The notes beneath the pieces were generated by a model. That model saw nothing but the letters and a program-made list of their open reading frames with translations. It was not told the DNA's origin and made no database searches. Positions 9,721 through 42,569 of a DNA stretch of 64,000 nt are shown in pieces. Source of the stretch: an uncultured Gammaproteobacteria bacterium (GTDB taxonomy: Bacteria > Pseudomonadota > Gammaproteobacteria > UBA9214); NCBI GenBank assembly GCA_963763115.1, contig CAVXNM010000031.1, positions 8,865 to 72,864 on the forward strand, in the 5' to 3' direction. Within the stretch, counting starts at the first letter, position 1, and each line of letters starts with the position of its first letter. A program made the position numbers and the translations under genes.

Positions 9721-9808
9721 GCGTAATGTCCCCGTTCGCCCTGATACTGAAATGGTCACCGGGTAGCATTGCCAGCCCATACGGGCAACGCAGGGCCGCT
9801 CGATAGCC

Positions 9809-10360
9809 ATGCGCACACTCCCCCGCAGGTTCTATGACCGCGACACGATCGTTGTAGCTCGCGAACTGCTCGGCAAGTACCTGGTCCATGTATCGCTGGG
9901 CGTCGAACACATCGGACGGATCGTAGAGGTCGAGGCCTACCTCGGACCGCATGACCTCGCCGCACACTCCGCACGGGGGCGCACCGCGCGAACCGAGGTC
10001 ATGTTCGGACCGCCCGGCCATGCCTATGTTTACCTCATCTACGGAATGCACAGCTGCATGAATGTCGTCACCCGGGAGGAAGGACACGCCTCGGCCGTGC
10101 TGCTGCGCGCCGTGGAACCGGTGCAGAATATCGAGGGGCGCACCTCGGGACCGGGATTGCTGTGCAGGGCGATGGGGATCGACCGGCGCCTGAACGCGCA
10201 CGACCTCCTGAGCACGGACTTCTATATCGCCGCGCGTGCCGGCGAGGCACCGGTAACGATCGTCAGGCGGGAACGCATCGGCGTGGACTACGCGGGACAC
10301 TGGGCGAAACGGCTGCTGCGCTTCTACGTCAAGGGCAGCCCGTTCGTGTCGAGACGCTAG
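9809..10360 (+). CDS. mpg: DNA-3-methyladenine glycosylase (MPG/AAG family)
   Basis: FYDRDTIVVARELLGK, IVEVEAYLG, YVYLIYGMH, VLLRAVEP, SGPGLLC, RIGV, LRFY. Confidence 0.95.
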   Translation: MRTLPRRFYDRDTIVVARELLGKYLVHVSLGVEHIGRIVEVEAYLGPHDLAAHSARGRTARTEVMFGPPGHAYVYLIYGMHSCMNVVTREEGHASAVLLRAVEPVQNIEGRTSGPGLLCRAMGIDRRLNAHDLLSTDFYIAARAGEAPVTIVRRERIGVDYAGHWAKRLLRFYVKGSPFVSRR

Positions 10361-10450
10361 CTGACGGGGTTCGGCAAGAGTCAAGCAGGCACTTGGCTAA
10401 CCAGACCTACCCCGGCGCGATGCCGTCGAATTCATACCCCGTGTACGTAT

Positions 10451-10669
10451 TCATACTTCCTGCCACTCACCCAGGTTATTGACGTAAAAACCCTGCCCGC
10501 TCGGGAGCACGGGATGACCGATCGCGATACAACCGTCGAGCGTGACGCTCGCCCAAAGCTCTTCGGGCTGGATCTCCGGATCAAGTCGACGGCGTACCTG
10601 AAACTCCCGTTCGACACAAACTGCAGCAATTTCGATGGCTTTTTCGAGATACGGCGTCAAAGTGATCAT
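10451..10669 (-). CDS. Small hypothetical protein (72 aa)
   Basis: ATG with GAGGGGG RBS; MITLTPYLEKAIEIAAVCVERE...GQGFYVNNLGEWQEV; globular composition. Confidence 0.55.
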   Translation of the reverse strand: MITLTPYLEKAIEIAAVCVEREFQVRRRLDPEIQPEELWASVTLDGCIAIGHPVLPSGQGFYVNNLGEWQEV

Positions 10670-11051
10670 GGTATCTACCCCCTCTTCAGTGCTGCCCTCA
10701 TCCCTTGCAATGCAGTGTCCGTGCCAGGCCCGACTCAAATAACAAGTAGTTTTTTACTAATTGAATTTAATGAAAATGTTTTGGCATCCGAAAGGCCTTT
10801 AGCCAGGCTCTGGATCACATCGACCGCAGAATATCGAAGCGTCGCCAGCTATCGTGACAGTGGATTTGACGAAACTGCGTTGAGTTACCCATACAGCGCC
10901 ATTATTTCGACGCATCAACTCATGGCTGCAGCGCGCCGCAGAGTGCTCGTTGACTCTACCGACACTCGCAAACGTTCGTTGAAGTTCCAATTCCTGGTGA
11001 GATATCCTCCCCCGCCATTCGCGCGGCTCCCTGGTCGCTCAGGTCTGCCCT

Positions 11052-13402: not shown

Positions 13403-14554
13403 ATGAAACAACGATTACTACGCCCGGCACTGGTCGGCGCCAGTCTGTTGCTCGCCGCCTGCAACCAGGCGACGTCACAGAACCCCCAGACACCGCCGCC
13501 ACCGGAAGTCGCCGTCATCGAAGTCCATCCGCAGAGCGTACCGCTGACCCGTGAACTCGTCGGCCGTCTGGCGCCGACACGGGTCGCGCAGGTGCGGGCG
13601 CGGGTGGCCGGCATCATCCTCAAACGCGCCTACAAGGAAGGCACCGACGTCGAGCAGGGCGAGGTGCTGTACCTCATCGACCCTGCGCCGCTGGAGGCGG
13701 CATTGCATGCGCAGGAGGCGGCGCTCGCTAGGGCGCGGGCCGACGCCGCCAACGCCGCGGCAACCGCCAAACGCTACCGCGAACTCGCCCAGAAGCAACT
13801 GATCTCGACCCAGGACCTGGATAACGCTCTCGCCAGCGAGCGCAGCACGGCGGCAGCAGTCAAGCAGGCGCAGGCCGACGTGGAAAGCGCCCGTCTCGAT
13901 CTGGGCTATGCCACCGTCACCGCGCCCATCGCCGGTCGCGCCGGACGCGCACTCGTGACCGAGGGCGCCCTGGTTGGCCAGGGCGAGGCGACCGAGTTGA
14001 CCACCGTCGAGCAGATCGATCCCATTTACGTGAATTTCAGCCAGTCGGTGACCGAGTTGCGGGAACTGCGGGGTACCGCAACCGCGCAGGACCCGGCGCG
14101 GGTGGACGTACTCCTGCAGGACGGGACGCCCTACCCGCAAACCGGCACGCTGGACTTCTCGGATCTTGCCGTCGATCCCGGCACGGGCGCCGTGTCGCTG
14201 CGCGCCGTGCTGCCGAACCCGGACCGTTCGCTGCTTCCGGGCATGTTTGTCAACCTGCGGCTGACGAGCGGCGCAATCGACAATGCCTTCGTGCTGCCCC
14301 AGGCCGCCGTATCGCGTGACGGCCAGGGCGCCTATGCCCTGACCGTGGACGCCGAAGGCAAGGTCGGGCAGCGCCGGCTGCAAACCCACGGCATGACGCG
14401 CACCGGCTGGATCGTCACGGGCGACCTGTCCGACGGTGACCGGGTGATCGTCGAGGGACTGCAGAAGGTGAAGCCGGGCGCCACCGCCACGACGGTGCCC
14501 GCGACCACGCCAACTGCCGATGCGGCCGATGCGGCCGATACCGCCGCGCACTGA
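13403..14554 (+). CDS. RND efflux periplasmic adaptor (AcrA/MexA-like lipoprotein)
   Basis: Lipobox LLLAAC, VRARVAGI, TAPIAGRAG, VDPGTG, LLPGMFV, VIVEGLQKV. Confidence 0.96.
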   Translation: MKQRLLRPALVGASLLLAACNQATSQNPQTPPPPEVAVIEVHPQSVPLTRELVGRLAPTRVAQVRARVAGIILKRAYKEGTDVEQGEVLYLIDPAPLEAALHAQEAALARARADAANAAATAKRYRELAQKQLISTQDLDNALASERSTAAAVKQAQADVESARLDLGYATVTAPIAGRAGRALVTEGALVGQGEATELTTVEQIDPIYVNFSQSVTELRELRGTATAQDPARVDVLLQDGTPYPQTGTLDFSDLAVDPGTGAVSLRAVLPNPDRSLLPGMFVNLRLTSGAIDNAFVLPQAAVSRDGQGAYALTVDAEGKVGQRRLQTHGMTRTGWIVTGDLSDGDRVIVEGLQKVKPGATATTVPATTPTADAADAADTAAH

Positions 14555-14566
14555 GGCGACACGCCG

Positions 14567-17500
14567 ATGCCAAGCTTTTTTATCGACCGGCCGATCTTCG
14601 CCTGGGTCATCGCCATCCTCATCACCCTGGCCGGCGGCGTCGCCATCTTCGAGCTGCCGGTCTCGGCCTATCCGCCGATCGCCCCGCCCCAGATCAGCAT
14701 CAACGCGGTCTATCCCGGCGCGAGTGCGGAAGTGATCGAAAAAACCGTAACCTCGGTGATCGAGCAGCAGCTCACCGGCGTCGACAACCTGCTGTATTTC
14801 GATTCGACCTCGCGTTCCAACGGCACGGTGCAGATCACCCTGACCTTCATCAGCGGCACCGATCCCGACATCGCCCAGGTGCAGGTGCAGAACCGGCTGA
14901 GCATCGCCCAGCCGCGCCTGCCCCAGGGAAGTGCTGGAGAATGGCATCACCGTCGCCAAGGCGAACAACGACTTCCTCATGGTGGTGGCGCTGCACTCGA
15001 AAGATCGAAGCTTCAATACCTACGCCCTCAACAATCTGATCGCCTCGCAGGTGCTCGATCCAATCCAGCGCCTGCCCGGCGTCGGCAGTGCTAGCCTGTT
15101 CGGCGCCGCCTATGCCATGCGCATCTGGCTCAACCCGGACAAGCTGCGCGGTTACGGACTGAGCGCCTCGCAGGTGCTCGATGCGGTCCGTGACCAGAAC
15201 GTGCAGATCGCCGCTGGCTACATCGGTGCGGAACCGGCCCCGCCGGGCCAGGGTTTCAGCGCCTCGGTCAATGCCGCCAGTCGCTTCACCTCCCCGGATC
15301 AGTTCGGCGACATCATCCTGCGCACCAACCCGGACGGCAGCAGTGTGCGTCTCAAGGACGTCGCCCGGGTCGCGCTCGGAGCCGAATCCTACGGCCATGA
15401 CGTGCATCTCGACGGCGATCCCATCGCCGGCTTCGCCATTCTGCTTGCCCCGGACGCCAACGCACTGGAAGTGGCCGATGCGGTGCGCGCCAAGATGGAT
15501 GAACTCGACGCCTACTTCCCGCCCGGGGTGAGCTGGCTGGTGCCCTACGACACCACACAGTTTATCCAGATCTCCATCCATGAAGTCGTGTTCACCCTGG
15601 TCGAGGCCGTGGTGCTGGTATTTCTGGTGATTTTGCTGTTCCTGCAGAACCTGCGCGCGACGCTGATACCCACACTGGTGGTGCCGGTGGCGCTGACCAG
15701 TGCCTTCGCGGGCATGTACATCGCCGGTTTCTCCATCAACGTGCTCACCCTCTTCGGCCTGGTGCTGGCCATCGGCCTGGTGGTGGACGACGCCATCGTC
15801 GTGGTGGAAAACGTGGAGCGCATCATGACCGAAGAAGGGCTGTCGCCGAAGGAGGCGACGCGCAAGGCCATGGACCAGATCACCGGCGCGGTGATCGCCA
15901 TGACCACGGTACTGGCGGCGGTGTTCATCCCGATGGCGCTGGTCGGCGGCAGCGTGGGCGTGATCTATCGCCAGTTTTCACTGACCATCGCGATCTCCAT
16001 GGCGATCTCGGCGCTGATGGCGCTCAGCTTCACGCCGGCGCTGTGCGCTACTTTGCTCAAACCGGTGCACGACGAACCGAACCGCTTCCTGCGCGGCTTC
16101 AACCGTCTCTACGGCGGATTGACGCAGGCCTATCTCGCACGCGTACGCCAGTCGATCCGCCACACGCCGCGCTGGATGATGGCCTTTGCCGTACTGGTGG
16201 GCGTGGCGATCCTGCTGTTCACCCGGCTGCCGACCAGCTTCCTGCCCGAGGAGGACCAGGGCTATGCGCTGGTGATCGTGCAGCTCCCGCCCGGGGCCAA
16301 CATGGAACGCACCGGCGAGGTTCTGCGGCAGATGGAAGTCATCATTCAGAAGCACCCGGCGGTGGAAAAGGTGCTCGATGTGGCGGGCTTCAGCTTCATC
16401 GGCCAGGGCGAGAACGTCGGGCTCGGCTTCATCCGCCTCAAGAACTGGGACGAGCGCCGCGCGGCCGATGAACAGATCAACGCCTTCATCCAGTGGGCGA
16501 ACGGCGCGTTGCAGGCCATCAAGGGTGCACGCATGTTCGTCATCAACCTGCCCACCATTCGCGGTCTGGGGCGTTTCGGCGGCTTCGATTTCCGCCTCGA
16601 GGACCGCGCGGGGCTGGGCTACGAGCAACTGCTGCAGGCGCGTAACACCTTGCTGGCAAAGGCCGCGGAGTATCCGACGCTCTACGGCGTACGGCCCAAC
16701 CAGCTGGAGCAAGCGCCGGAACTTCACCTCGAAGTGGACCGGGTGCAGGCACAATCCATGGGACTGTCTCTGCCGGATATCTATGACGCCATCCGCCTGA
16801 TGCTGGCGCCGGTCTACGCCAACGACTTCAACTACGAGGGTCGTGTGCTGAAGGTGCTGCTGCAGGCGGATGCCGACTTTCGCAGCCGCGTCGAGGACCT
16901 GAGACATTACTACATTCCCGGAAGCCAGGGCGGCATCGACAACATGGTGCCGCTCTCCAGCGTCGTGTCATCGAGCTGGACACTGGCGCCACCTGCGATC
17001 GATCACTACAACGGCCACCCCGCGATCCAGATCAACGGTTCCGCCGCGCCGGGTTACAGCTCGGGACAGGCCATGGATGCAATGCAGGAAATCGTCACCA
17101 AAGACCTTACCCCGGGCATCGGCTACGAGTGGTCCGGCCAGTCGCTGCAGGAGATCATCTCCGGCCAGCAAGCACCCGTTCTCTTTGCCCTGTCGCTGCT
17201 GGTGGTGTTTCTTGCGCTCGCCGCGCTTTACGAGAGCTGGTCGATTCCGGTGGCGGTCATGCTGGTGGTGCCGCTCGGCGTGCTCGGCGCGCTCAGCTTC
17301 ACCTGGCTGCGCGGCCTGGAAAACGACGTATATTTCAAGGTCGGCCTGATTGCGGTGATCGGTCTGTCGGCCAAGAATGCCATCCTGATCATCGAGTTCG
17401 CTAATACCATGCGCCAGCAGGGTCGCGGCGTGCTGGGGGCCACGATCGAGGCCTGCCGTCTGCGCTTCCGGCCGATCCTGATGACCTCCATCGCCTTCAT

Positions 17501-25782: not shown

Positions 25783-26044
25783 GGCCTGTCAACACGTGTA
25801 TGATCGCCGCGTTGCTGTCTGAAATCAGGCCAGGCAAGGCGCGAGGAGCGAAGTGTAGTGGTGCCAAATGGACAACGAGGAACGCCGCATGGCCTGATTT
25901 CAGGCGCAACCCGCAGGGACGGGGCCATTTTCCCGCAATCCTGCGTTAGCGCTCATGTGTGTAGCCTAACTACACGGCACTCGCGCTGCCTTGTCTTGCG
26001 AAAATATGGCCGCCGTCGCGACGACCATAACGTGTTAACAGGCC
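25783..26044. mobile_element. MITE (about 262 bp, non-autonomous; IS5-like CTAG target)
   Basis: TIRs GGCCTGTCAACACGT / ACGTGTTAACAGGCC (1 mismatch), flanked by direct CTAG (25779-82, 26045-48); no transposase. Confidence 0.85.
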
Positions 26045-26206
26045 CTAGTATGACGCCTCGAAAATAATAACCGGCTCCGGGAGCACCGACAGCGGCCGGA
26101 TGAATTGCGGTGCACTGAATAGCACCAGCCCCATGGGCAGTACCAGGCCGCTTGCGATAAGACAGAGTATGAACGTCACAGTTTGTACCAGCTCTTCGAG
26201 TTTCAT
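26045..26206 (-). CDS. Small membrane protein (53 aa), not in ORF track
   Basis: GGAG RBS, MKLEELVQTVTFILCLIASGLVLPMGLVLFSAPQFIRPLSVLPEPVIIFEASY*; one TM; stop TAG lies in the MITE target duplication. Confidence 0.6.
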   Translation of the reverse strand: MKLEELVQTVTFILCLIASGLVLPMGLVLFSAPQFIRPLSVLPEPVIIFEASY

Positions 26207-26302
26207 CACCGTATCTCCATGCCGCTCCCGTGTCGGGAGGTTTTCGGGAATACAGTGTGCGGGAGTCAGTGGCTCACTGGATGAGCCCGTAGTCGCAACG
26301 AC

Positions 26303-27277
26303 TCAATCCGCATAGCGCAAAGCCGCGGCTGTGAGCTGTTCACGCACGTGCGTGCGCAGTCGCGCCGGGGACAGAACCTCGACCTCCGGTCCGTGCCTGA
26401 GGATATCCATGAGCAGTTCATGCTCTGCGCTGTAGGGCAGTTCCAGCAGCCAGGAGCCGTCGGCTTCAAATCGCCCGCGCTGTTCCGGGTGCCACTGCTC
26501 GACAGAAACCCAGCGCGCGCGCGCCGGCGTGAAACGCAGCCGGGCCCAGCTCAGTTGCTTGCCGGCAAAGATGCCGTAGCCGCCGGCGAGTTCCGCGTCG
26601 AGACGTCGCTCGGAAACCGCTTTCGCCGTGTTCTCCAGCATCTCTGCCGTGCCGATGGCATCCACCGCGAACACACGCAAGGCATTGCGCAAATGGCACC
26701 AGGCATCGAGATACCAGTTGTCCCGATAGTGCACCAGGCGCTGCGGGGAGATCTCGCGCCGGCTCTCCGCGTCACTCGAGCGGGCGCGGTAGCGGATCCG
26801 CAAGCGCCTGCGCTTGAGGGTCGCGCTGGCCACGGTTTCGAAATGCGCCAGCTTCGTCGAGCGTGCGGCCATGTACAGGATGCGGATACGCTTGCGCACC
26901 TCATCGCCGGTGGCATTACGGCTCTCCAGCAGCGCCTCGAGACGCGCGAGCAGCGGCTGGATATGGGGCTTGAGCAGTCCGGCCCCGAGATTTGCCAGCA
27001 ACTGTTGCAGCGTTAGCAGGGCATGGATTTCCGCCGCACTGAACCAGAGCCCAGGCAGCTTGTAGCCCGACGCGCGGGGATCGGATGCATCGTAACGGTA
27101 ACCCCGCCGCACCCGGTCCCAGACGATCGGCGCATGGAGACGGTCCCTCAGGTACTCGAGATCGCGCTTGACCGTGGCCTTGGAGGTCCCCAGCGCCTCG
27201 ATCAGCGCGTCCATCGGCACGCAACGCCGTTCGCTCAGCAGCTGGTCGATTTTGTAAAAGCGTTCGGTGCGGTCCAT
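26303..27277 (-). CDS. HTH-WYL-WCX transcription regulator (PafB/DriD/YafY-like)
   Basis: MDRTERFYKIDQLL, SKATVKRDLEYLRDRL, ISPQRLVHYRDNWYLDAWCHLR, FAVDAI, EVLSPARLR. Confidence 0.95.
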   Translation of the reverse strand: MDRTERFYKIDQLLSERRCVPMDALIEALGTSKATVKRDLEYLRDRLHAPIVWDRVRRGYRYDASDPRASGYKLPGLWFSAAEIHALLTLQQLLANLGAGLLKPHIQPLLARLEALLESRNATGDEVRKRIRILYMAARSTKLAHFETVASATLKRRRLRIRYRARSSDAESRREISPQRLVHYRDNWYLDAWCHLRNALRVFAVDAIGTAEMLENTAKAVSERRLDAELAGGYGIFAGKQLSWARLRFTPARARWVSVEQWHPEQRGRFEADGSWLLELPYSAEHELLMDILRHGPEVEVLSPARLRTHVREQLTAAALRYAD

Positions 27278-27407
27278 TCAACCCCCGGCAGTTAACTTAT
27301 GGCTGCGTAGAAAAACTGGATCCCTGCATCCACGGGGATGACGTGTTCAGGGATATGTTTAATGTAAGTCTTCCTCCATAAACACCGTTTTGATGGACAG
27401 ACACTAA

Positions 27408-29251
27408 TCATGATATTCCCTCTTCACCAACCCATCCGAGTTTTTCCGAAAGCGCGGAGACCCGCTGCACGCGGCGCTGGCAGCCCTGTATAAAGGTCTG
27501 CCGTTCACCCTGGATGGTGACCCGGTTTCTGGCCCGCGTTATGCCGGTGTAAACCAGCTCGCGCGTCAGCACGGGACTCTCCGAGGATGGCAGCACCAGC
27601 AGTACTTCGTCGAACTCGGAGCCCTGACTCTTGTGCACCGTCAGGGCGTAGGCGCAGCTGTGTTCGGGCAGCTGACGAATGGAGACGCTGCGCAGCTCGT
27701 TTCCCGTGAAAGCGAACCATGCGCGCAGGCTATCGTCGGCGGCACGCCACAACAGGCCGATGTCGCCGTTGAACAGGCCCACCTCGTAATCGTTGGTCAT
27801 CACCATCACGGGTTTGCCGTGATATTCCTCACCGCCGCGTATCAGCCCGAGCGTCTGCAGCCGCTCGGCGATGCGCCGGTTGATGTCCCCCACCCCGAAG
27901 GGTCCGCCCTGTAGCGCGGCCAGCACCCGCGTCTGCTCGAAGGCCCGGAGCGCAGCGAGCACGTCGTCCGCCTGCAGGTAGCGTGCATAGCGCTCCACCG
28001 CCCAGTCAAGACAGGTGGAATTGAGGCTGCTCTCCCCCGCATCGAGCCAGGCGATATCGCAGTAGCGACCCTCCTCGAACAACCGGAACGCCGCCTCCCC
28101 TTCCCCGGCATTGATCCGGCGCGCCAGTTCGCCGATGCCGCTGTCCCCGGCAAACCGATAGCTGACCCGCAGCAGTCCCACCGCACCGGCGATGCGCAGG
28201 GACGGCGCCGCACCCGGCAGTTCCCCGCCTTCGGTTACCATGCCGAGACCTGCCAGGAAACCGAATTGCGAGTGGCTGTAGCGGATCTCCTGGCCATGAC
28301 CGGTGATATCACCGAGCACGTTGCCCGCCTCGACCGATGCCAGCTGATCGCGGTCGCCGAGCAGGATGAGACGACTTCGGGAAGGCAGCGCCTCGAACAG
28401 GTGGGCCATCAGCGGCAGGTCGATCATCGATGCCTCGTCCACCACCAGACAGTCAAGCACCAGTGGGTTATCCCGGTTGTAGCGGAATCCACTGCCGAAT
28501 TCGGCGCCCAGCAGCCGGTGCAGCGTGCTCGCCTCCTCCGGTATGCGCGCCAGTACACCGGGCGAGGTGTCGACGCGGCCCTTGCCGCCGCGAATGGCCT
28601 CCGTGAGTCGCGCCGCCGCCTTGCCGGTGGGCGCCGCCAGCTCGATATGCAGCCCCGGGTCCTGTTCCAGCAGCAGCGCCAGCACCTTCACCACGGTGGT
28701 GGTCTTGCCGGTGCCCGGCCCGCCCGAGATCACGGCAAAACGGCGGCTGACCGCGATCGCCGCCGCGATCTTCTGCCAGTCGATCGCACCGTCCTGCATT
28801 TCCCTGAACAGGCGCCGCAGGCCATCGATCAGCCGCGCTGCATCCAGCGCCGCCACGGATTCCAGACGCGCCCGCAGGGCCTCGGCCACCGTCTGTTCAT
28901 ATTGCCAGTACTTGCCGAGGTAGAGGCGCTGCCGGTCGAGGATGAGCGGTGCGTTCATGCCCGGTTTCCCCACCCAGTGCGCGCCGGCCAGCGCCTCCAG
29001 CCACTCGCCGAGGGGCGGCGCCCGGGGAAGCTCCCGCGATGCCTCGCTATCATTCCCGAACAGGGGCTGGTCTGCATACTCCGCGAGGTCCACGCAGACA
29101 TCTCCCTGCAGGTTTCGCAGGCTGACCAGCGCAGCGCTCCGGGCCAGCAGGCCATCCTCATCCACCCCACAGCCGCGCGCCACGAAGCGGGCGAAGTAAT
29201 ACGCCAGCGGGGGGAGACCGCCAGTGTCCATCAGGCGTCGCAGCAGGTCGC

Positions 29252-29255
<4 letters not shown>
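27408..29255 (-). CDS. recD: Exodeoxyribonuclease V alpha subunit
   Basis: ISGGPGTGKTT, APTGKAAARL, VVDEASMID, GDRDQLASV, NGDIG, ALTVHKSQGSEF, YTGITRAR. Confidence 0.97.
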
Positions 29256-32822
<3,567 letters not shown>

Positions 32823-32826
<4 letters not shown>

Positions 32827-35800
32827 GTCAGCGCTCCCGCGGCCAGCGCGTCGGCGTAGAACGCCTCCGCCAGCTCTGTGAATTCCGGCTGATCGATCGG
32901 CTTTCCCGCGATGCCGCGCATCACCAGCTGGACATACGCATCGTCCTTATCGCCGGGGATACCGGCGAAGTCGTTGCCGTTCCAGGCGTTGAATGCAACG
33001 CTGGACGGGTCGGCCCGGCTGCCCTGACTCACGGCGTGCATCCAGGCATAGCTCGCGCCGGGCAGCAACGGCAGCGGCCGCTGCAGTCCCTCCCGGTACC
33101 ACCGCAGGTAGCGGGCGAGGTGTACCTGCGCCTCGGCCGGGTCAAGGGTCTTCGTGAGGGTGAACTGCCCGGTCGTCCCGTGCAGGGTGCTGCATTTGTC
33201 GCCGCGAGCATCGCCGGCGCACCAGGCCAGGTGTTCCAGCCACAGCGCCAGAATATCCGGCCCCTTGAGAGCGCCCGGCCGGTAGCGCAGCAGTCCCGAC
33301 CCCCGGTAAATGTCCTTGATCTGCCCCGCGAGCCGGAACGATCCTGCCGTCTCGTCCTCGAAGAGCAGGTCGACCAGCCGCTGCTCCGGCGGATGCCCCT
33401 GGAAGGCCTCGAGCCGCCGCATCAGCGGCTGCACGTTCTGCGACTCCTGCTGCCAGGCGAGCGCGGCGAACGCCCCGTGCGGCAGGATGCCCTCGGCGCT
33501 CAACTGGCGTGCGGGAGTCGGCCGTCCCTTGAGGTAATCATCCAGCAGGCGCTGCTTCAGGGTGAAACTCCGCAGCGCATCCAGCCGAAACACCTCGTCG
33601 TCTTCGCCCGGCGCCTCCTCCCGCAGGTAGACCTGCAGGCGGGTATTGACGAAAAACCGCACCGGATGGCGTACGAAGCGCAACAGCTGCATGAGGCTGA
33701 CGGTGCGCAGGGGATCCGGCATGTCGGACAGGCGGGTGCGGTTCCAGTCCACGTCCGCCGGTTCAGGCTGCACCGGCTGCTGTAACGCCTGCGCCACGGC
33801 ACACCAGTCGCCATCGTAACTGTGCGACTCGCCGCGGTAATTGCGCGGACTGAAGGGCTGTAGCGGATGCACATGCGTCAGCCGTGCACTGAGCCTGTCC
33901 CCGGCATCGTCACCGGCAATCACGTACTGCTGGTCGATGTAATCCAGCAGTTCTCGCAGCAGCACCGAGGGCTGGCGCTCGCTGTTGTTGCGGATGTCGC
34001 GTCCGACGTAGCTGAGATAGAGGACCTGTCGTGCGCACAGCAGCGTCTCCAGAAACAGATAGCGGTCCTCGGTCCCCTTGCGCGGGTCGCCGGGACGCCA
34101 CTGCTCGCGCATCTGATCAAACTCGGCCGGCTGCTCGCGGCGCGGAAAGGCCCGGTCGTGCAGTCCCAGCACGCAGATCACCCTGAAGGGCAGACTGCGC
34201 ATGGGGCGCATGCCGCAGAAGGTCACCCCGCCGCTGAAATAGCGGCCGTGACGGGTGTGCGTGCCCAGCTGCTGCTCCAGCCAGTGACGCACCAGGGCGA
34301 TGGGCAGGGCCTCGTCCAGGCTGCCGGCCTGTCCGGCCAGATCCGCCAGGGCATCGCGGATTTTCTGTATCCGGCCCTCTTCGTCCTCGTGTTGACCGAA
34401 GAAATCATCGAGCAGGCGGCCCAGGCATTCCTGCCACTCGCCGGCGCGGCGCGGGCTGCGCAACCGCTCGGCGTAGTCAGTAAGACAGGACAACAGCCGC
34501 CAGAACCGGCCAAGTATTTCACCCCGGGCCCCATCCACGCCGGCAATCGGGGCGATGTCCTCGAACAGTTCGCCCTCGCCCAGGGCGTAGCCGCCGAACA
34601 GGCGTCGCTCGACCTGCGCCCAGGTGTTCTCCCCGGTGCCGGGCAGGCCGAACTGCCGCTTGTGCCCGCTGTTCAATCCCCAGCGCAGCCTGGCCTCGCT
34701 CAACCACTCCCGGATTTGCGCCACCGCCTCGCCGTCCAGCGCGAAGCGACCGGCCAGTTCGGGCACGTCGAGGCAGGACAGGATTTCCGTGTGACTGAAA
34801 CGGCTATGCGGCAAGTCCAGTAACTGCAGGAACACCCGCACCAGCGGATGCTCATCGCGCAGCGAAATATCCGACAGGTTCCAGGGGATGAACGGCCGCT
34901 CGGATTCCGTATCCTGTTCGAACACGGCCTCGATGTAGGGGGCATAGAGGCTGATCTCCGGCACCATGACCAGCATATCCTCGGGACGCAGCGCGGGGTC
35001 GCTGTCCAGCATCGCCAGCAGGCGGTCATGCAGCACCTGGCACTCCCGCTGTGGACTGTGACAGACGTGCACCTGCAGCGAAGCATCGCCCTCGACGGGA
35101 GTCCGCTCGCCGGGGCCCGCCATGGGGCGCAGGGTGAAAATGTCCTGCTGGAGATGCCGCAGCAGTGAATCCGTTCCGGGCGGCATGAAGACCTCTTCCT
35201 CGGTGGCCGGGGTTTCCTGCATCAGCAGCAGGTCCTGCAGGGCCTGTCCCTGTCGGCCCCAGGAGGCTAGCAGACTGTTACCCGTTTCCCACAACTCGGC
35301 GGCTTCCGGTTGCGCCAGGCGCTTGCGCGCCAGCGTCTTCTGGGACACCAGGTCCGCCCAGAACTGATCGGTTGGACTGTGCAGGTAGAGTTCGATGCGG
35401 GTATGCGCGGCAAGCGCGTGGAGCACCTCGACGAACAGCGGCGGCAGACTCGAGACGGCAAACAGGCTGACCCGCTCCGGCACGCCTGCGGGCAGACCCC
35501 TTTTCCGGAGGCGGAAGAGCAGGCACTCGGTGACGGCGAGTCGGTGACGGGTAATCCCGCGGGTCAGGCGGCGCCACAACAGCGCCTGCCACTGGCTGTC
35601 CTTCCCCGTGCCCCAGTCACGCAACTGCTCCGGCCGGTAGAACTGGTAACGATCGAAAACGTCCGCGATTCGGGCGGCAAGCTGAAACCGCTTCAGACCA
35701 CCGGCATCCTGCTGCAGGTAGTGAGCAATGGAGGCAAACGCCGGCTCTCGGATCAGCTCAGGCAGCAGTGCGTAGACCTTCCAGGTCATAACATCGGGTG

Positions 35801-36059
35801 CCAGCGGGTCGGTCCCGGGTAGATCACCGAGCAGCTCGCAGGCGAGTTGCCAGATGAACGACGCCGGCAGCGGATAGCGGTAATTGGCCGCCACCCCGTG
35901 CCGGGCGGCGAGCTGCAGGTTGACCCAGCGCGCCATGGCGGGACTCGGCGTCACCACCACCTCGGGAAGCAAGGGCGATGAAAGCGGCTGCTCTCCGAGC
36001 CGCTCGGCCAGGCGCTGCAGCAGCAACTCAACGCGATTGGATCGGCAGATATGCAGCAT
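32823..36059 (-). CDS. recC: Exodeoxyribonuclease V gamma subunit
   Basis: SNRVELL, DVFDRYQFYRP, LLASWGRQG, CHSPQRECQVLHD, PMRSLPFRVICVLGL, EDRYLFLETLL, HPLQPF. Confidence 0.97.
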
Positions 36060-36274
36060 GGGCTCGGATTCTATCCTGCGCGGCGATGCCTGTGGAGGAA
36101 AGGAGTGAAAACCCTCTTCTTGGAATCAGCAACCAGAAGAGGCAAGAAAGGGGCTTTGACTACATTTCACCCAACGTTGAATTGAAAAGTGGAATGATGT
36201 AAGCGGTGTTGTCGCTAACATTATTTCACTTGATTTTCTCAGAATCATCCGCGCTGAACGACCGGGAGCTGTGA

Positions 36275-39200
36275 TTACAGCTCGTGCACCTTGACCGGCG
36301 ACGCTGCCCCCAGCACCTGCGCCTGTTCCACAAGCCGTCGGTGGTGGGTAAACAGGATGATCTGTGTTTTCCTGGCAAGCTCGGCCAGTACGCCGAGCGT
36401 CGCCCTGGATCGCTCGTCGTCGAAATGCACCAGGATGTCATCGACGATAAACGGCATGGGCTCCGCGCTTTCCATGTACTTCTCCAGCGATGCCAGACGC
36501 AGCGCGAGGTACAGCTGATCACGGGTTCCGGAACTCATGCCTTCCACGTAGACCCGGTCATCATTGGGCCGCACACCCACAAGGACGGGTTCGTCTTTCT
36601 CGTTGAAGTCGGCGCGAAGACCGGCAAACGAGCCCTGTGTCAGCACCGCGAAGTGCTCACTGGCACGTTCCAGCAGGGGCCCCTGGTGCTGCTGGCGGTA
36701 GCGTTCGATCTCGTTCCGCAATATCCGTGAGGCCAGTTTCACGCGAACATACTGTTCCGCATTCGAGCGTATCTTCACAAGTACCGACTGCGCCTCATCG
36801 GCCAGTACCGCGGCGTCATCACCGCCATCCATCCGATCCAGTTCATTCTTCTGCTTACCCTTTGCCTCGTGCAGATCTTTTATTCGCGGCTCAAGCTCAT
36901 CGTCGATCCGGCGAGTCAGTGACTCGATCTCGCCGGGCAGCGTATCCGGATCTGCCGCATCCACCTGTGTCTCGAGTTCAGCCAGCGTCACGCCTTCAGC
37001 GATGTCCCGAAGCTCCTGCTCCAGGCTATCGATTGTGTGCTTGCAGTTCTGATACTCGTTCGATCTTTGCTCAGCCAGTTCCAGTCCCGAGGCATCACGG
37101 CACTCCGCTTCCTTGCACAATGAATCGAGTCGTTCGAGCATCGTCTTGCGGGTCGCCTCGGCTGTGTCGATGTCCTCCTGCGCCTTGCGGATCTGTTCTT
37201 CGAACTGTTGGCGACGGGTATCCTCTCTTTGCGTGTCTCTCAGCAAGCGGATGAGACGTGCTACAGCATCCTCAACCGGCACTTTTGCGATGTCGGACGC
37301 CACACGCGCCACCACGCTTGCCACTTCCTCCCGGAATGTTCTTGCCTCTGCATCGATGGCCGCGATGCGGATTTGCAGTTTGTCCGCCTCATTCTGTTTT
37401 CCGAACAGTTCTCTGACGCTATCGAGAATGGCAGTCACCTCAGCGGGCAAGGCATCAGCCCCCAACCCCAGCCCGCCGACGACCTCCTTCCACTCACCCT
37501 TCCATGTCACGAGTGCCTCGCTAGCCGCTTGCTGTTCCAGCCGTGAGCTTTCCAGCCCTTGCTCGAGTGACGATATCTCCTTGTCCAGCATCTGACGCTG
37601 CCTGGCCAGTTCATCGATCCTGTCAGCTACTGCCTCGCACTCGGCTAGTAACGCTTCGAGAGATTCCGGGGTACTGACCTCTTTCCCAAGATCCTTCAGC
37701 GCCTGCTGCAGTGACTGGATATGCAACCCCCGCGTCCTTTCCAGGATATCCATTCGCCGGCGCTGTCCGTAAAGATCCTCGATCCGGTCACGCAGCCTCT
37801 CCATATTGTCCAGCCATGCACGCATCTCCCTCGGCGGCAGTGGCTGGATAGCCGAGCGGCCCCATAAACTGGCCCAGTCTGCATCAATCTGTCGCTGTTC
37901 CCCGGCACAGTCCTCGCGCTCCCCGGCAACCTCCTCGGCACGCACCCGGGCATCTGACAGTGCTGCCAGCAGGCTGGCCTGTTTCTGCACACGTTCGGCC
38001 TCGCGTCGCAGACGGTCCGCGAGTTCATCAGCATCAGCAACCCGGAACTCGTATGCCTCAGGTAGTGCACGCTCGGGATCCAGCTCTCGCGCCTCGGTAT
38101 CGACCACCTCACCACCCAGCCACTGACGGCGTATCAGCTCCCATGCCTGCTGCCGGCCGGAACGGACTTCAAGCAGGTCCTGCTCGGTAGGAATCGAACC
38201 GGCATACTGAATCTCATCAAGCTGCTTTTGCACCTCACGCACCCTGTTCGCATGTTCTGCCTGCCTGTCATCGAGGCGCCGGGTGCGTTCAGCCACATCG
38301 GCATATGCCTGCTCAAACCGGTCAATGCTTTCACGTGGCGGCAAAGGCAAGCCTGGAATCTCGTCGAGGGTGCCTTGCCACTGGGCACTGAGTCGGGACA
38401 GGTCGTGGCGGCATGCCTGTTCAAGCATTTCATATTCATCCCGGGCTGTTCGCAGTGATTCATCCAGATTACCCTGGCGTCGGGTTAGTGCTACCTGCTT
38501 GCGCAGCGCCTCTGATGATCCCGCCTCGGCAAGCTCCATGCGTTCCTCGCGGGCCTTTTGCAAGCGTGATTCATGCTCTCGTTGCAGTTTGACGGCCTGG
38601 CGCTCACGTTCGATCAGCGCCTGTCGCTGATTTCCCAGATCCGTGATTCTGGCACCTCTCGACAGGACTGGTCGCAGTGTTTCGGCATTATCGAGGGAGA
38701 TGTCCGGACGAACCGCTTTCAGCAGGGCTTCGGTATCCGACAGCAATTGACTGCGCTCGGCCTTCCGGTGCGGACGGTCCTGCATGGCCTTGCGGTGACC
38801 ACCCAGGCGTTCATGCAGATCCTCGATAGTTTCACCAAATTCCAGTATTTCCGTGTTCACTGAAATTGCCGCGAGCTGCTTCTGCAGGCCTTCCAGAGTC
38901 CTGGTCGCACTATTTACTGTAGTGGCCGCCTTATCCAGTTCGCGGGCAGCGGTCTCACGGCGCTTGCCGAAATCTGCCGCCAGCATGACGACATCACCCA
39001 GTTCCTCAATTTTCAGCAGCAGTTCACGCCGCGCCGAGATCCTGGGCAGAGCCCGCTGGATGCGCCGCAGCCGATTTCGATCGGCCTTGGTCTGCACCAG
39101 CTCCTCTTGCAGTTGTGCCAGTTCCTTGTTGGTCCGCTCAAGGGCACGGCGCGCCTCGCCCCATTCACGCGATGACAGCGACTGGTCCTTGATAGCCTTT

Positions 39201-39779
39201 TGAAGTTGAGCATGCTCTTTCAGGGCAGCGTTGAACGTCGGCTTCGACCCCACCCGGTTTGAAGAGTTCACCGGCTTCGGTTTCCAGCTGTTCCAGCACG
39301 GCATGCAGGGCCGCACTGCCCATGGAGGCGGAAAACAGCGCCTGTCCGACCTCCCCCTTTTGCTCCAGGATTTCCTGCCCGCCCCGGACCAGTGCCTCAT
39401 GATCGATGCCGAACAGCATCTCGAACACCTCGGCGCTAACACCATGGAGAAATGGCGCCAGCGCATCGTCCACGAGCTGGCCACCGTCCGGCGACAGCAG
39501 GGTATTCTTGTTGCCCTTGCGCCTGATGATGGCGAGCTCATGGCCGTCATGGCTCCGCAATGTGCCGCCAATCCGGAGGTCCTTGTTCTCGTGCCTGAAG
39601 TTGTCGGTCGTCCGCGCAGGGATGCCGAACAGCAACGCCTTCAGACCGCGCAGCGAGGAACTCTTGCCCGCCTCATTGGGCCCGTAGACGATGTGCAGCC
39701 CGCCTCCGGGCGAGGAAAAATCCAGCAGCCGGTCGCTGAACGGGCCAAAGGCAAGCAGGTTGAGTTCCCGGATCTCCAC
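36275..39779 (-). CDS. yhaN: YhaN/SbcE-like SMC-type ATPase (AAA_27), with a +1 frameshift at about 39248-39251
   Basis: LLAFGPF, Walker A YGPNEAGKSS, long coiled coil, signature MSSGTRDQLYLALRLA, Walker B IVDDILVHFDD, LFTHH. Confidence 0.9.
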
Positions 39780-41040
39780 TATGCATCCACCTCGAACTGA
39801 CGAGACGGTGCACCAGGAGTTCCTTGATGTCCTCCATCAGGCTGGTCAGGTAGCCGGGATCGGTCGGATCGTAACGATCCTCGCCGCCCAGCAGTTCCGG
39901 CGGGAGCTTCTGGCGCAGGTCGGCTACTTCAGCGGCGAGCCCCTCGACGCCGGAAGCGTCAATCTCGAGTGCGTGGATCGCACGCAGCAACCCGCCCAGC
40001 GCATCGTCCCGTTCAAGCAGTTCGTCCATCGCGACCGCCTGGCGTGTCTCGATGGCCACCTTCTCCAGCCACATCCCCGCTCCGCCAAGGCCTGACGCGA
40101 GCGCGCGGTACTCCTGAATCCAGTGAATGCTGTCCGAGTGCAGTATTGAGTGCACCGGACTGCTGCCCTGCAAAACCAGTCTGGCGGCAACGGGGCGTGC
40201 ATCGGCATCGTCCAGCGCCTGCTGCAGTGCATCCCGCACCTGATCATAGATTTCATCGAGTGAAGCACTGTCCGTCACATCCACCGTGCACCGGGTCCAG
40301 CGCAGGACATCGAGGTCACGGTGCTCGACGGCTGCCACTTCGCCATCTGTAACGGTAACCAGCGTGCAGCCCTTCGGGCCGGTCTCACGGGCGTGACGTC
40401 CCTGGATATTGCCCGGGAACACGATCCAGGGCTCCTGGCTGACCACCTCGCGGTTGTGGACATGCCCCAGCGCCCAGTAGTGATAACCTTTGGAACGCAG
40501 GCCATCGACTGTGCAGGGCGCATAGGGTTCATGGCCCGGCTTGCCGTTCAGGCAGGTGTGCAGAAGACCAATATTGAACAGATTCGGATCCGCTTGCGGG
40601 TAGGCTCTGGAAAGGTCTTCCGTTACCTCGCACCTCGAGAAGCCCTGCCCGTGCACCGCCAGGTCCAGTTTCTCGAGCACTACGGTTTCCGGCTTGCTGG
40701 TGGAAAACAGTGTGACATTGTCCGGCAGGCGCAGCTGCCTGGTAATCTGGCTGGCCGCATCGTGGTTGCCTGCAACGATGAACACGCGGATGCCCGCCTC
40801 GCGCAGCCGTGCCATCCGCTGGATAAAATACAGCCCGGTGTTGTAATCCTTCCAGTCACCGTCGTAGAGGTCGCCGGCGAGCAGCACGAAACTGACCTCC
40901 TCCTCAATCGCCAAGTCGACCAGATTGTCGAAGGCGCGCCGCGTGGCGCCACGCAACTCCGCGACCGGTGCGCCTTCATAGCGTTCCAGGCCGTGCAGCG
41001 GGCTGTCGAGATGCACATCGGCGGCGTGGAGGAATTTCAT
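39673..41040 (-). CDS. yhaO: YhaO/SbcD/Mre11-like DNA exonuclease (metallophosphoesterase)
   Basis: HAADVHLD, AGDLYD, AGNHD, LLHT, ALGHVH, PGNIQGRH; the 3' end overlaps yhaN by 107 bp and may be extended by an indel. Confidence 0.93.
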   Translation of the reverse strand: MKFLHAADVHLDSPLHGLERYEGAPVAELRGATRRAFDNLVDLAIEEEVSFVLLAGDLYDGDWKDYNTGLYFIQRMARLREAGIRVFIVAGNHDAASQITRQLRLPDNVTLFSTSKPETVVLEKLDLAVHGQGFSRCEVTEDLSRAYPQADPNLFNIGLLHTCLNGKPGHEPYAPCTVDGLRSKGYHYWALGHVHNREVVSQEPWIVFPGNIQGRHARETGPKGCTLVTVTDGEVAAVEHRDLDVLRWTRCTVDVTDSASLDEIYDQVRDALQQALDDADARPVAARLVLQGSSPVHSILHSDSIHWIQEYRALASGLGGAGMWLEKVAIETRQAVAMDELLERDDALGGLLRAIHALEIDASGVEGLAAEVADLRQKLPPELLGGEDRYDPTDPGYLTSLMEDIKELLVHRLVSSRWMHSGDPGTQPACLWPVQRPAAGFFLARRRAAHRLRAQ

Positions 41041-41103
41041 GAGAAAAAGCCTTAAATAATTAACGTATGATACTGTTAATCATACTTATATGATAAAACT
41101 TTA

Positions 41104-42153
41104 CCTGATTAGCGATAAACCTCAGCCAGGCTCACGGGGTGAGCCACTGGGGTTCGTAAACTAGCCCCATGGTAGGTTTAAGAGGAGCAATACCATGGCG
41201 ATGAATCGAATCCAATTCCAACCCGGGCTGAGTCTTACGGAATTCCTGGAGCAATACGGTACGGAGGAACACTGCGAGCAGGCGCTGGAGCTGGCCCGCT
41301 GGCCAAACGGTTTTCGCTGCGAGAACTGCGCAAGCACGCACTACTGTATCGTGAACGCCCGCGGCCGCAAGACCTATCAGTGCCATCACTGCCACCACCA
41401 GAGCACGCTCAAAGCCGGCACGATCTTTCATGCCTCTAAGTTGCCGCTGGTGCGCTGGTTTCAGGCCATGTATCTGATGAGCCAGTCGAAAAACAACATC
41501 TCGGGCCTCGAACTGAAGCGTCAGCTGGGGGTGTGTTACCGCACCGCCTGGCTGGTCAAGCACAAACTGATGCAGGTCATGCGTGAACGCGAAGCCGACG
41601 GCGTCCTGAGCGGGCGAGTGATCGCCGACGATGCCTACCTGGGCGGTGAGCGGCGCGGAAAGCGCGGGCGCGGCTCGGAAAATAAGGTACCCTTCATTGC
41701 GGCGGTCGAGGTCGATGACGCGGATCGTCCGATGCGCGTGCGTTTTGATCGGGTCGAGGGCTTTTGCTCGGAGGCGGTCAGCGCCTGGGCCAGGCAGCAT
41801 CTGGCGCCCCAGAGTAGCGTGGTCTCGGATGGTCTGGCGTGTTTTGCCGCCGTCGCGACCGCGGGCTGCCAGCATGAGCCCCAGGTGGTTGGTGCTACGC
41901 GCCGCAGTACCGATATGCCCTGCTTTAGCTGGGTTAATACCCTGCTGGGCAACCTGAAAACCGCCTTGAGTGGTACCTATCATGCGTTCAATTTTGCAAA
42001 ATATGCCGACCGTTATCTCGCTGAGTACCAGTACCGCTTCAATCGACGCGTTAACCTCAAGACCATGCTGCCCCGTTTGCTGCGGGCCGCGGCGACAACC
42101 GGCAGTCGCCCTGAGGCCTGGTTGAGAATGGCTGAGCTTCATCGCTAATCAGG
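41104..42153 (+). mobile_element. Complete IS1595-family insertion sequence (1050 bp)
   Basis: 25-bp TIRs CCTGATTAGCGAT(A/G)AA(C/G)CTCAGCCA at 41104-28 and 42129-53; 8-bp TSD AAACTTTA at 41096-103 and 42154-61. Confidence 0.96.
41195..42148 (+). CDS. IS1595-family transposase (ISSod11/ISXo-like)
   Basis: Zn ribbon CENC...CHHC, GTIFH, ADDAYLGG, SDGLACF, EYQYRFNRR. Confidence 0.96.
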   Translation: MAMNRIQFQPGLSLTEFLEQYGTEEHCEQALELARWPNGFRCENCASTHYCIVNARGRKTYQCHHCHHQSTLKAGTIFHASKLPLVRWFQAMYLMSQSKNNISGLELKRQLGVCYRTAWLVKHKLMQVMREREADGVLSGRVIADDAYLGGERRGKRGRGSENKVPFIAAVEVDDADRPMRVRFDRVEGFCSEAVSAWARQHLAPQSSVVSDGLACFAAVATAGCQHEPQVVGATRRSTDMPCFSWVNTLLGNLKTALSGTYHAFNFAKYADRYLAEYQYRFNRRVNLKTMLPRLLRAAATTGSRPEAWLRMAELHR

Positions 42154-42569
42154 AAACTTTATAACGCTTTGTGTAGGAGCTGATTTGCCCGCAAATCGGT
42201 TGAGTGACAAGCGTCGACTCGCGGGCGAGCACGTGTCTACAGATAGATTCACCAGTTATTTCGAGGAATTCGCCGTTCCTGTGGCTTCTATCAGTGCTGA
42301 AAATCGGATATTGCAATCCTTGCATAGTGAGTGGCTCACCAAGTGAGCCTGACTATAACCGATCGGGTGCAGGCTGACAGGAAAACACGACCGGCCAGGC
42401 AGGCGCCGTAAATTAAGGCGCATTCTGATAAATCAGACCTAACCCCTTGATAGCCACCTCTCTGACCGAACGCAGGGCCAGAAAGTATCGGTCCGCGAAA
42501 TAACACGCCGGATGACAACCGCTGTCGGAGTACCGGTGAACCGGCAATGACCTACGCCCCGATGTCGCA

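Follow-up and report, generated by a model that had tools for sequence, protein, structure and literature searches.

The stretch of DNA analysed here, the window, comprises 64,000 nucleotides (C31:8865-72864) of a metagenome-assembled genome (MAG) of an uncultured gammaproteobacterium (93 contigs, 4.02 Mb, 88% complete, 58.4% guanine plus cytosine (GC)). Its minus strand carries, in the order of transcription, yhaO, yhaN, recC, recB, recD and a gene encoding a transcription factor with helix-turn-helix (HTH), WYL and WCX domains (the WYL gene). We read this locus, with rather more confidence than doubt, as a break-repair circuit under WYL control that flanks an acquired RecBCD. The locus is composite: three units (yhaO-yhaN, hereafter yhaON; recBCD; the WYL gene) stand together, all acting on broken DNA, and the evidence favours a repair circuit induced by damage over a new anti-phage system. 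This reading is built on direct observations, i.e., the gene content, the synteny, a common promoter box, the fixed spacing of this box to a -10 hexamer and the pattern of presence and absence of the genes. The constituents, RecBCD, an Mre11/Rad50-type nuclease and a WYL regulator, are all of familiar types, and the cluster is not a new kind of system. A preliminary description of the window had placed six co-oriented genes on the minus strand and assigned five of them to two machines that attack DNA ends; the positions were borne out by open reading frame (ORF) and profile searches, and the membership of both machines in the families named by profile and structure matches (Table 1).

The box is a 19-bp palindrome, GGCTCAY-N3-GTGAGCCAC (core GGCTCAY-N3-GTGAGCC; in its extended form CAGGCTCAY-N3-GTGAGCCACTG), obtained by comparison of upstream regions. 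It stands at two places of the locus, upstream of yhaO and 15 nt past the stop codon of the WYL gene. These are the only two sites of the strict pattern in the 4.02 Mb of the genome; the copies located in insertion sequences (IS) match a looser pattern. The 19-mer had three matches in the window compared with none in 100 shuffles, and the reversed pattern, used as a control, had no match in 12 genomes. Upstream of recC or recBCD no WYL box was found in the window.

The distribution of the box was followed in the GTDB order of this bacterium (one family, six genera, 54 genomes) and in metagenome loci. All five genomes of the order with a WYL orthologue of at least 60% identity (G000, G003, G006, G012 and G066) have the box 3' of this gene, as does the metagenome locus L173. 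The box stands upstream of yhaO in G003, L172, L242 and L253, and with one mismatch in L173. Of six genomes without a WYL orthologue, five contain no box and the sixth (G002) has an IS-borne copy alone. The box upstream of yhaO in G006 (L013 ~15800-15850, G006:C285) is broken by a run of ten Gs (CAGGCT-ATTTGGGGGGGGGG-CGGCCTGAGTGGCC), possibly a sequencing artefact. It was absent upstream of yhaO in 80 distant YhaON loci, and its occurrence at yhaO is therefore lineage-specific. YhaN itself is present in five of the 54 genomes (G000, G003, G004, G006 and G012), and four genomes possess both YhaN and the WYL orthologue (Fisher's test, ~8e-5, uncorrected for phylogeny). In the genus g6, G012 alone has YhaN or WYL, and it has both. 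The WYL gene is thus tied to yhaON, and not to recBCD, by the common box and by joint presence and absence; recBCD has no box.

Public metagenomes were scanned with CRGGCTCAYHNNGTGAGCCACT, which returned at least 120 stretches, and 65 unique sites were analysed. In 38 of these 65 sites a hexamer of the form nAnnnT starts 8-9 nt after the box, compared with about 2-3 sites at other offsets. Given this fixed spacing of 8-9 nt to a -10-like hexamer, the box takes the place of a -35 element. Box 2, upstream of yhaO, has its hexamer at offset 9, and the same spacing was seen for an ORF of 54 amino acids (aa) 3' of the WYL gene, ARPP-1, an MkoA-like helicase, SRAP, recA, a divergent WYL gene, IS1595 transposases and yhaO. 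Among the 88 ORFs that flank box sites outside IS elements, WCX (7) and WYL (6) proteins are the commonest, followed by DEAD helicases, RNase_T exonucleases, recA, SRAP and PD-(D/E)XK nucleases. An RNA hairpin or terminator was considered as another identity of the box and is unlikely: the sequence of the arms is conserved without compensatory changes, the loop is variable, a U-tract is lacking, and the spacing to the -10 hexamer is fixed. A literature search on the box sequence found no paper that describes it. Tentatively, and with more doubt than confidence, we propose that the box and its -10 hexamer are the signature promoter of an undescribed, widespread PafBC-like WYL damage regulon outside Actinobacteria and Alphaproteobacteria.

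The 54-aa ORF, a putative member of this regulon, is kept 3' of the WYL gene in three genera (G003, 89% identity; G006, 41%; G012, 42%). Furthermore, it is found in the same-genus loci L203, L218, L227 and L238 (82-94%), in each case ~81 nt past the point where the box match begins. No similarity to anything outside this lineage could be detected for it. The box and the small ORF are separated by an ARPP-1 gene in G012, L173 and L182, and in L173 also by a DUF4258 gene. In the window, a sequence of ~35 nt 3' of the 54-aa ORF (GTAGTTAGGCTACACACRTGAGCGCTAACGCAGGA; ~25945-25990, minus strand) recurs at C17:~7690 and is a repeat.

The best solved relatives of the WYL protein are PafBC (6sj9, 4e-18), PafC (7p5x, 2e-15) and then DriD (1e-4). 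The protein had been described at first as a sensor of single-stranded DNA (ssDNA). Its PafBC/DriD-like nature stands, and ssDNA sensing is predicted from the residues at the DriD ssDNA contacts, most of which appear to be kept: Y168, R176/R178, Y192, R204, W206 and Y240 correspond to Y, R, R, Y, R, F and F, and R207 to A (seven of eight conservatively kept, in a weak pairwise alignment). Like PafBC (6sj9, 7p5x; PMC11804915), whose regulon consists of DNA-damage genes, it has the HTH-WYL-WCX architecture, and its presumed promoters combine a motif, a distance of ~8-9 nt and a TAnnnT-type -10 hexamer without a -35 element; PafBC promoters are described as lacking a functional -35 in the discussion of PMC9186387. 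Unlike PafBC, which is a PafB-PafC pair or fusion, the regulator here is a single chain of 324 aa, presumably acting as a homodimer. We take its symmetric palindromic box to be unrelated in sequence to the PafBC motif.

DriD of Caulobacter is a homodimeric WYL activator that recognizes a palindrome of ~20 bp, is switched by ssDNA and drives the genes for the small membrane division inhibitor DidA, recA, recJ and a nuclease (PMC9186387, PMC4211646). The locus resembles it in the palindromic site and in the small ORF with a predicted membrane helix, and its WYL protein may have kept most of the ssDNA contacts. It differs in that the similarity of the proteins is weak, the DriD site (ATACGTCCGTTTCTGGCGCA) is another one, and in DriD promoters a normal -35 follows the box. 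The DriD operator, tried as a candidate for the box, was rejected as unrelated in sequence. We infer that the WYL protein would bind the box, would activate rather than repress, and would respond to ssDNA as its signal.

Several observations weigh against the WYL-controlled circuit. The box 3' of the WYL gene travels with this gene, and the phyletic link between the two is therefore partly trivial. The same box is present in IS1595 elements, including that of G002, which has no WYL orthologue, so another protein, e.g. the transposase, may bind it. The box at yhaO lies just downstream of a sigma-70-like -10, a position like that of a repressor site, so the regulation may be of either sign. In G006, yhaON and the WYL gene are located on separate contigs, and in L174 the WYL gene is not found within 10 kb of yhaON. 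The adjacency of yhaON and recBCD is rare (~5% of 80 loci). Finally, frame breaks are denser in the cluster than in the background (see below), and real decay of the locus is therefore possible.

YhaN belongs to a family of proteins of ~1165 aa with more than 1,500 relatives, which are 50-55% identical across classes and widespread in Pseudomonadota, Desulfobacterota and Planctomycetota; close homologues are labelled 'uncharacterized protein YhaN' by JGI (Joint Genome Institute). In a neighbourhood survey of 80 diverse YhaON loci (neighbours tallied by Pfam at ~40 upstream and 56 downstream positions), yhaO was directly upstream of yhaN in at least 70 of the 80. The motifs of the ATPase are present (Walker A GPNEAGKSS, signature SSGT, Walker B VDD, and THH). 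No CxxC zinc hook was found in the 1189-aa YhaN of G003, and an alignment of 12 sequences contains isolated invariant Cys residues only. Nor was a hydrophobic central segment or membrane hairpin found: the maximal Kyte-Doolittle value over 19 residues was 1.38 for the G003 protein, 1.31 for that of the window and 0.99 for a Bacillaceae protein (L111), with no segment above 1.5. Having an AAA_27 head, no hook and no hydrophobic centre, these proteins form a soluble YhaN-like subfamily rather than SbcE sensu stricto. SbcE and SbcF (YhaN and YhaO) of Bacillus subtilis act in double-strand-break repair upstream of RecA, and SbcE lacks a CxxC hook and has a central domain rich in hydrophobic residues (PMC2811018). 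The pair of the window shares with them an Mre11/SbcD-like phosphoesterase gene directly upstream of the gene for an SMC-like ATPase, as well as the AAA_27 head, the long coiled coils and the absence of CxxC. In contrast to SbcE/SbcF, the family here measures ~1165 aa, has a conserved non-hydrophobic centre and no yhaM partner, and apparently uses a WYL-type promoter.

The gene order of the window recurs in G003, split over two contigs, with ygiQ-yhaO-yhaN-recC on the first and recB-recD-WYL-SPOR gene on the second. YhaN and RecC of this clade occur together on at least six metagenome contigs, two of which were read. L172 has the order ygiQ-yhaO-yhaN-HicB-HicA-recC-recB-recD (HicBA at 13837-14273), and L298 has ygiQ-yhaO-yhaN, 3.5 kb with five small ORFs including Imm10 (8943-11819), and recC-recB. 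The junction of yhaN and recC measures 215 nt in the window and 260 nt in G003, in both cases without inserted genes; it is an insertion hotspot. The arrangement of yhaON and recBCD is kept in at least eight populations of the genus, in which YhaN differs by up to 30%. The adjacency is therefore not unique to this genome, but the WYL gene lies beside recD only in this species group. The latter was rejected as a conserved feature, as WYL orthologues elsewhere adjoin TetR, ARPP-1 or DUF2357/PD-(D/E)XK genes.

The proposal that the block is a repair super-operon did not survive. The gap between yhaN and recC is variable (215 or 260 nt, HicAB, Imm10) and contains a sigma-70-like site before recC, whereas recC, recB and recD overlap, by 4 nt of stop and start codons at each of the recC/recB and recB/recD borders; hence, the block is not one operon. 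Similarly, yhaON does precede recCBD in order, but the placement 'directly upstream' has to be qualified by the 215-nt AT-rich spacer before recC. In G001, whose RecC is the closest to that of the window (90%), ygiQ is followed by 5.5 kb with an IS110 transposase and fragments, by recC-recB-recD and then by the SPOR gene. Neither yhaON nor the WYL gene was found anywhere in the genomes G001 and G002. The slot of yhaON in G001 (L146 9220-14720, G001:C16) is occupied by an IS110-family transposase, TPR/methyltransferase fragments and a SHOCT-domain ORF; the G001 assembly is noisy, with many frame splits in ygiQ and recC. G006, which is without RecBCD, has a gene for a PolX-type polymerase (HHH_8, Pol beta thumb/palm, PHP; L013 6830-8554, G006:C285) 2.4 kb 3' of yhaN on the opposite strand.

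The recC-recB-recD genes encode an ordinary, canonical, translationally coupled RecBCD of the E. coli type, and they are the sole copy in the genome. They share with the E. coli genes full-length equivalog matches, overlapping stop and start codons and all expected domains. No functional difference is evident; what sets them apart is their restriction to a single genus of the order, their high GC content at third codon positions (GC3) and two frame breaks of recB in the assembly. RecC is present in four of the five genomes of the window's genus (g1), whereas the other five genera, with 49 genomes, have none. Outside the genus, the closest RecC is of Chromatiales type (60-66% identity; 62% for Thioflavicoccus mobilis). 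With the 1,234 long ORFs of the genome as reference (median GC3 0.72, interquartile range 0.66-0.77), yhaN has a GC3 of 0.66 and yhaO of 0.72, whereas recBCD reach 0.81-0.84 (90th-96th percentile); recBCD and the WYL gene taken together have 0.79-0.84. The GC gap reported in the preliminary description is real (59.8% for yhaN versus 66-68% for recBCD), but its interpretation, that the low GC content of yhaN betrays acquisition, has to be reversed: GC3 of yhaON is ordinary, and it is recBCD that falls in the top decile. Judging from composition and similarity, recBCD was probably gained from a Chromatiales-like donor of higher GC content. In the order, recBCD and yhaON are both accessory, and only recBCD looks compositionally foreign. 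As yhaON is patchy and is sometimes found at the edges of conjugative elements, an older horizontal movement of yhaON is likely, too. Such an edge position was seen in two distant lineages, L300 (6707-16566) and L056 (11478-14333), next to conjugative-element genes (RAQPRD, TraC_F_IV, TraU; TraG_N).

In the proposed circuit, YhaO-YhaN would process DNA ends that are blocked, hairpinned or capped by protein, opening or trimming them. The best match to the SbcC model TIGR00618 across the whole genome scored 20.5 bits (cut-off 478); with no canonical SbcC in this 88%-complete genome, yhaON is the only such complex seen. RecBCD would resect clean ends and yield ssDNA, and YhaON may feed ends to it. 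The HTH-WYL-WCX regulator would bind the GGCTCAY-N3-GTGAGCC box at the place of the -35 element, 8-9 nt before the -10 hexamer, and, once ssDNA is bound to its WYL domain, would turn on yhaON and the 54-aa membrane protein. SbcCD and RecBCD of E. coli cooperate in recombinational repair. A precedent for a helicase-nuclease encoded beside an SbcCD-type pair is the addB-addA-sbcD-sbcC operon of B. subtilis (PMC1533848). Both loci encode a helicase-nuclease resection enzyme and an Mre11/Rad50-type complex side by side; they differ in that the window has YhaON with RecBCD, the order yhaON-recCBD, a variable spacer and apparently different promoters. In fact, YhaON is located beside RecBCD or AddAB independently in four lineages and in three gene orders. 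Apart from the lineage of the window, these are Desulfotignum with recC-recB-yhaO-yhaN (L067) and two Pirellulaceae with addB-like-addA-like-yhaO-yhaN (L105, L109), both tight four-gene clusters, and MAG153 with recC-recB-recD-yhaO-yhaN across two overlapping contigs; in all of them the helicase-nuclease genes directly adjoin yhaON in the same orientation. Four independent juxtapositions make a functional link between YhaON and RecBCD/AddAB plausible.

As assembled, this circuit looks impaired, since an IS1595 element splits the box from yhaO, and recB, yhaN and yhaO are frame-broken, the breaks being perhaps errors. The element sits 63 nt upstream of the yhaO ATG, between yhaO and the box promoter, and ends in 13-bp terminal inverted repeats, flanked by a duplicated 8-bp target (AAACTTTA). 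G003, L172 and L298 have no such element at this position. The genome contains three copies with 99.6-99.9% identity (C30:~54105-55168, C31 in the window, and C32:~26886-27938). The element has its own box (41129-41147) upstream of the transposase gene, followed at the usual spacing by TAAACT. A diverged copy with a box is found at C21:~28200-28960, and ~20 metagenome IS1595 elements are also box-bearing; their transposases are 45-84% identical to that of the window, and the box starts nearly always ~62 nt before the ATG. The ORF336 (41132-42142, minus strand) has no family matches and is the antisense shadow of the IS1595 transposase.

The frame breaks were located by comparison with relatives. 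The recB gene is spread over three frames, which change near 31872-31875 and 31724-31733, and a middle piece of 48 residues lies in the third frame. Both break points are read through in one frame in G002, and RecB is intact (1190-1193 aa) in L172, L175 and L176. The 1098-aa 'yhaN' ORF opens with ~108 off-frame codons. The true head, with the Walker A motif, starts from GTG 39779 in another frame, in which PF13514 matches at 39234-39773 (E 2e-69), and joins the main frame near 39248-39251. Intact YhaN has 1167-1189 aa in G003 and G006 (AAA_27 in G003, E 2e-72). In yhaO, 416 aa align to orthologues (90% and 79% identity to G003 and G006, respectively, with invariant DVH, GDLYDG, GNHD and GHVH motifs), and a read-through of 36 codons into yhaN follows; the stop codon, a TAG that overlaps the yhaN start in relatives, is missed via a 2-base length difference near 39786-39793.

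It is possible, though on balance doubtful, that the cluster of this strain is a decaying remnant, in which IS1595 uncoupled yhaON, real frameshifts came later and neither machine works; this would be independent of the other readings. The indel background was estimated by comparing 193 intact G003 ORFs (66,000 aligned residues) with the genome of the window. It amounts to ~4 internal frame breaks per ~200 kb, compared with four frame-breaking events (five extra bases) in the 14.7 kb of the cluster (Poisson P ~1e-3). Moreover, the IS insertion is certainly real, given its target duplication and its absence from relatives, and yhaON has been lost altogether in other genomes of the genus. However, housekeeping genes of this assembly contain indels as well: sucC (succinyl-CoA synthetase beta) is split at residue 286 with 94-97% identity on either side. 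Further splits in genes of 90-97% conservation lie at C14:~8611, C23:~56665 and ~59570, and C25:~74524 (sucC is among these). Such splits on other contigs indicate indel noise in the assembly. The resolution of three 1-kb IS copies within 100-kb contigs suggests a long-read assembly; two of the breaks fall in homopolymer runs, and consensus errors concentrate in strain-variable regions. Furthermore, outside the breaks all frame segments are free of stop codons and 80-90% identical to orthologues, and recC and recD are intact. We therefore regard the breaks as probably due to assembly error rather than to decay.

If the locus were instead a dedicated, layered anti-phage and anti-plasmid island, YhaON and the cargo between it and the WYL gene (RecBCD in the window) would attack linear DNA of invaders, a WYL regulator of the BrxR/CapW type would release them upon infection, and YhaON would back up a RecBCD inhibited by a phage. 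A layered defence, suggested in the preliminary description, seems improbable to us. In its favour is L173 (JGI Ga0210096_1000007, 139-23504), from another genus and with a YhaN of 71% identity. This locus has the order box-yhaO-yhaN, NERD/UvrD, PDC-S40, box-MkoA-like RNaseH-fold helicase, WYL-box-ARPP-1-DUF4258-53-aa membrane ORF. The slot between yhaN and the WYL gene thus holds a NERD and UvrD helicase, a PDC-S40 candidate (1e-85) and an MkoA-like (Mokosh) helicase (2e-44) with its own box, and dndB/C/D and a PbeA/type-IV-restriction-like helicase lie upstream. A second metallophosphoesterase gene follows the 53-aa ORF, and L173 looks like the same arrangement in the form of a defence island. 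The WYL orthologues of G012, L173 and L182 are followed by ARPP-1, which is predicted to belong to a conflict system, and toxin-antitoxin and immunity genes insert at the yhaN/recC junction. YhaON is patchy (5/54 genomes) and sometimes located at the edges of integrative and conjugative elements or beside OLD-like genes, and BREX and CBASS have WYL regulators that act as repressors, according to the discussion of PMC9186387.

Defence-like cargo of this kind was seen at one related locus. In PADLOC v2, YhaO and YhaN matched no system; there was P-loop/coiled-coil similarity to LmuB, JetC and mad3 (1e-11 to 1e-5) and a weak 'Effector' match of YhaO. A general enrichment of YhaON near defence genes was not seen either, as the Pfam tallies of the neighbours in the 80 loci are mostly housekeeping, with OLD-like genes twice. 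Elsewhere, the box precedes recA and SRAP, classic damage-response genes, and it is placed like an activator site and not like a BrxR-type operator. Because recBCD is the sole copy in the genome and SbcC is absent, housekeeping repair is a simpler role than defence.

That the adjacency is a historical accident, with the interval between ygiQ and the SPOR gene being a hotspot of recombination and insertion that gathered unrelated accessory genes (yhaON, recBCD, the WYL gene with the membrane ORF, IS and toxin-antitoxin genes), and with yhaON and recBCD functionally uncoupled, is unlikely. The interval is indeed highly variable (the IS110 transposase and the TPR/methyltransferase/SHOCT fragments of G001 without yhaON or WYL, IS1595 in the window, HicAB in L172, Imm10 in L298), recBCD lacks a box and seems to have a promoter-like site of its own, and no yhaON lies near the RecBCD genes of Thioflavicoccus and L177, which are the closest ones outside the genus; but the two machines have been juxtaposed independently and in other gene orders in three other lineages, some with overlapping genes or gaps of 7-8 nt, where we estimate ~0.1 such cases to be expected in 80 loci, for a gene family of one or two copies, against four seen, and the arrangement has persisted in the populations with YhaN diverged by up to 30%.

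Table 1. Features of the yhaON-recBCD-WYL locus and its surroundings (positions in the window)
Feature	Position	Strand	Evidence and remarks
54-aa ORF, putative regulon member	26045-26209	-	one predicted transmembrane helix; directly 3' of the WYL gene
WYL box 1 with -10-like hexamer, putative promoter of the 54-aa ORF	26254-26287	-	box GGCTCATCCAGTGAGCCAC at 26269-26287; CACACT 9 nt on
HTH-WYL-WCX transcription factor, 324 aa	26303-27277	-	Pfam WYL 5e-23, WCX 2e-16, HTH_DeoR
recD, 615 aa, intact	27408-29255	-	TIGR01447 515 bits (cut-off 310), full model; RecD_N, AAA_19, UvrD_C_2
recB, complete in content, three frames	29252-32826	-	TIGR00609 model 4-261 and 356-1172; PDDEXK_1
recC, 1078 aa, intact	32823-36059	-	TIGR01450 933 bits (cut-off 583); Exonuc_V_gamma PF04257 and RecC_C PF17946
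yhaN/recC spacer, 215 nt, AT-rich	36060-36274	-	sigma-70-like TCCACA-17-TAGAAT at 36096-36068; no WYL box
yhaN-like, hook-less SMC/Rad50-type ATPase, ~1167 aa when intact	36275-39779	-	AAA_27 head (PF13514)
yhaO-like, Mre11/SbcD-family phosphoesterase, 455 aa as read	39673-41040	-	Metallophos 2.5e-12; Mre11/SbcD NCBIfam and PDB matches
IS1595-family element, 1050 bp	41104-42153 (41096-42161 with duplications)	+	transposase 41195-42148; PF12762 3e-38, PF12760 7e-13 (zinc ribbon)
WYL box 2, native yhaO upstream region	42331-42349	-	GGCTCACTTGGTGAGCCAC; IS now between box and yhaO
Sigma-70-like site	42380-42352	-	CTGTCA-17-TATAGT; just upstream of WYL box 2
Box-bearing IS1595 loci	L181, L193, L196, L202, L207, L209, L210, L212, L213, L215, L216, L222, L231, L244		

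The proposed WYL-controlled break-repair circuit brings into view a soluble, hook-less YhaN/YhaO family that is found in Gammaproteobacteria and other phyla and has so far been studied only in Bacillus. In the lineage of the window this family is apparently driven by a PafBC-like WYL activator through a sharply defined promoter box, and the same promoter stands before recA, SRAP, helicase and IS1595 transposase genes in many environmental genomes. The box and the WYL protein are concrete candidates for components of an SOS-independent damage response in Proteobacteria, and they offer a possible mechanism of stress-induced transposition. If the wider regulon is real, a subgroup of IS1595 elements would have built a host promoter before its transposase gene, and transposition would fire when the host senses ssDNA or damage. 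Furthermore, the arrangement '[box]-yhaON ... WYL-[box]-small gene' would anchor helicase-nuclease cargo that can be exchanged, with RecBCD in the genus of the window and NERD/UvrD, PDC-S40 and MkoA-like genes in that of L173, and the line between break repair and defence would be blurred.

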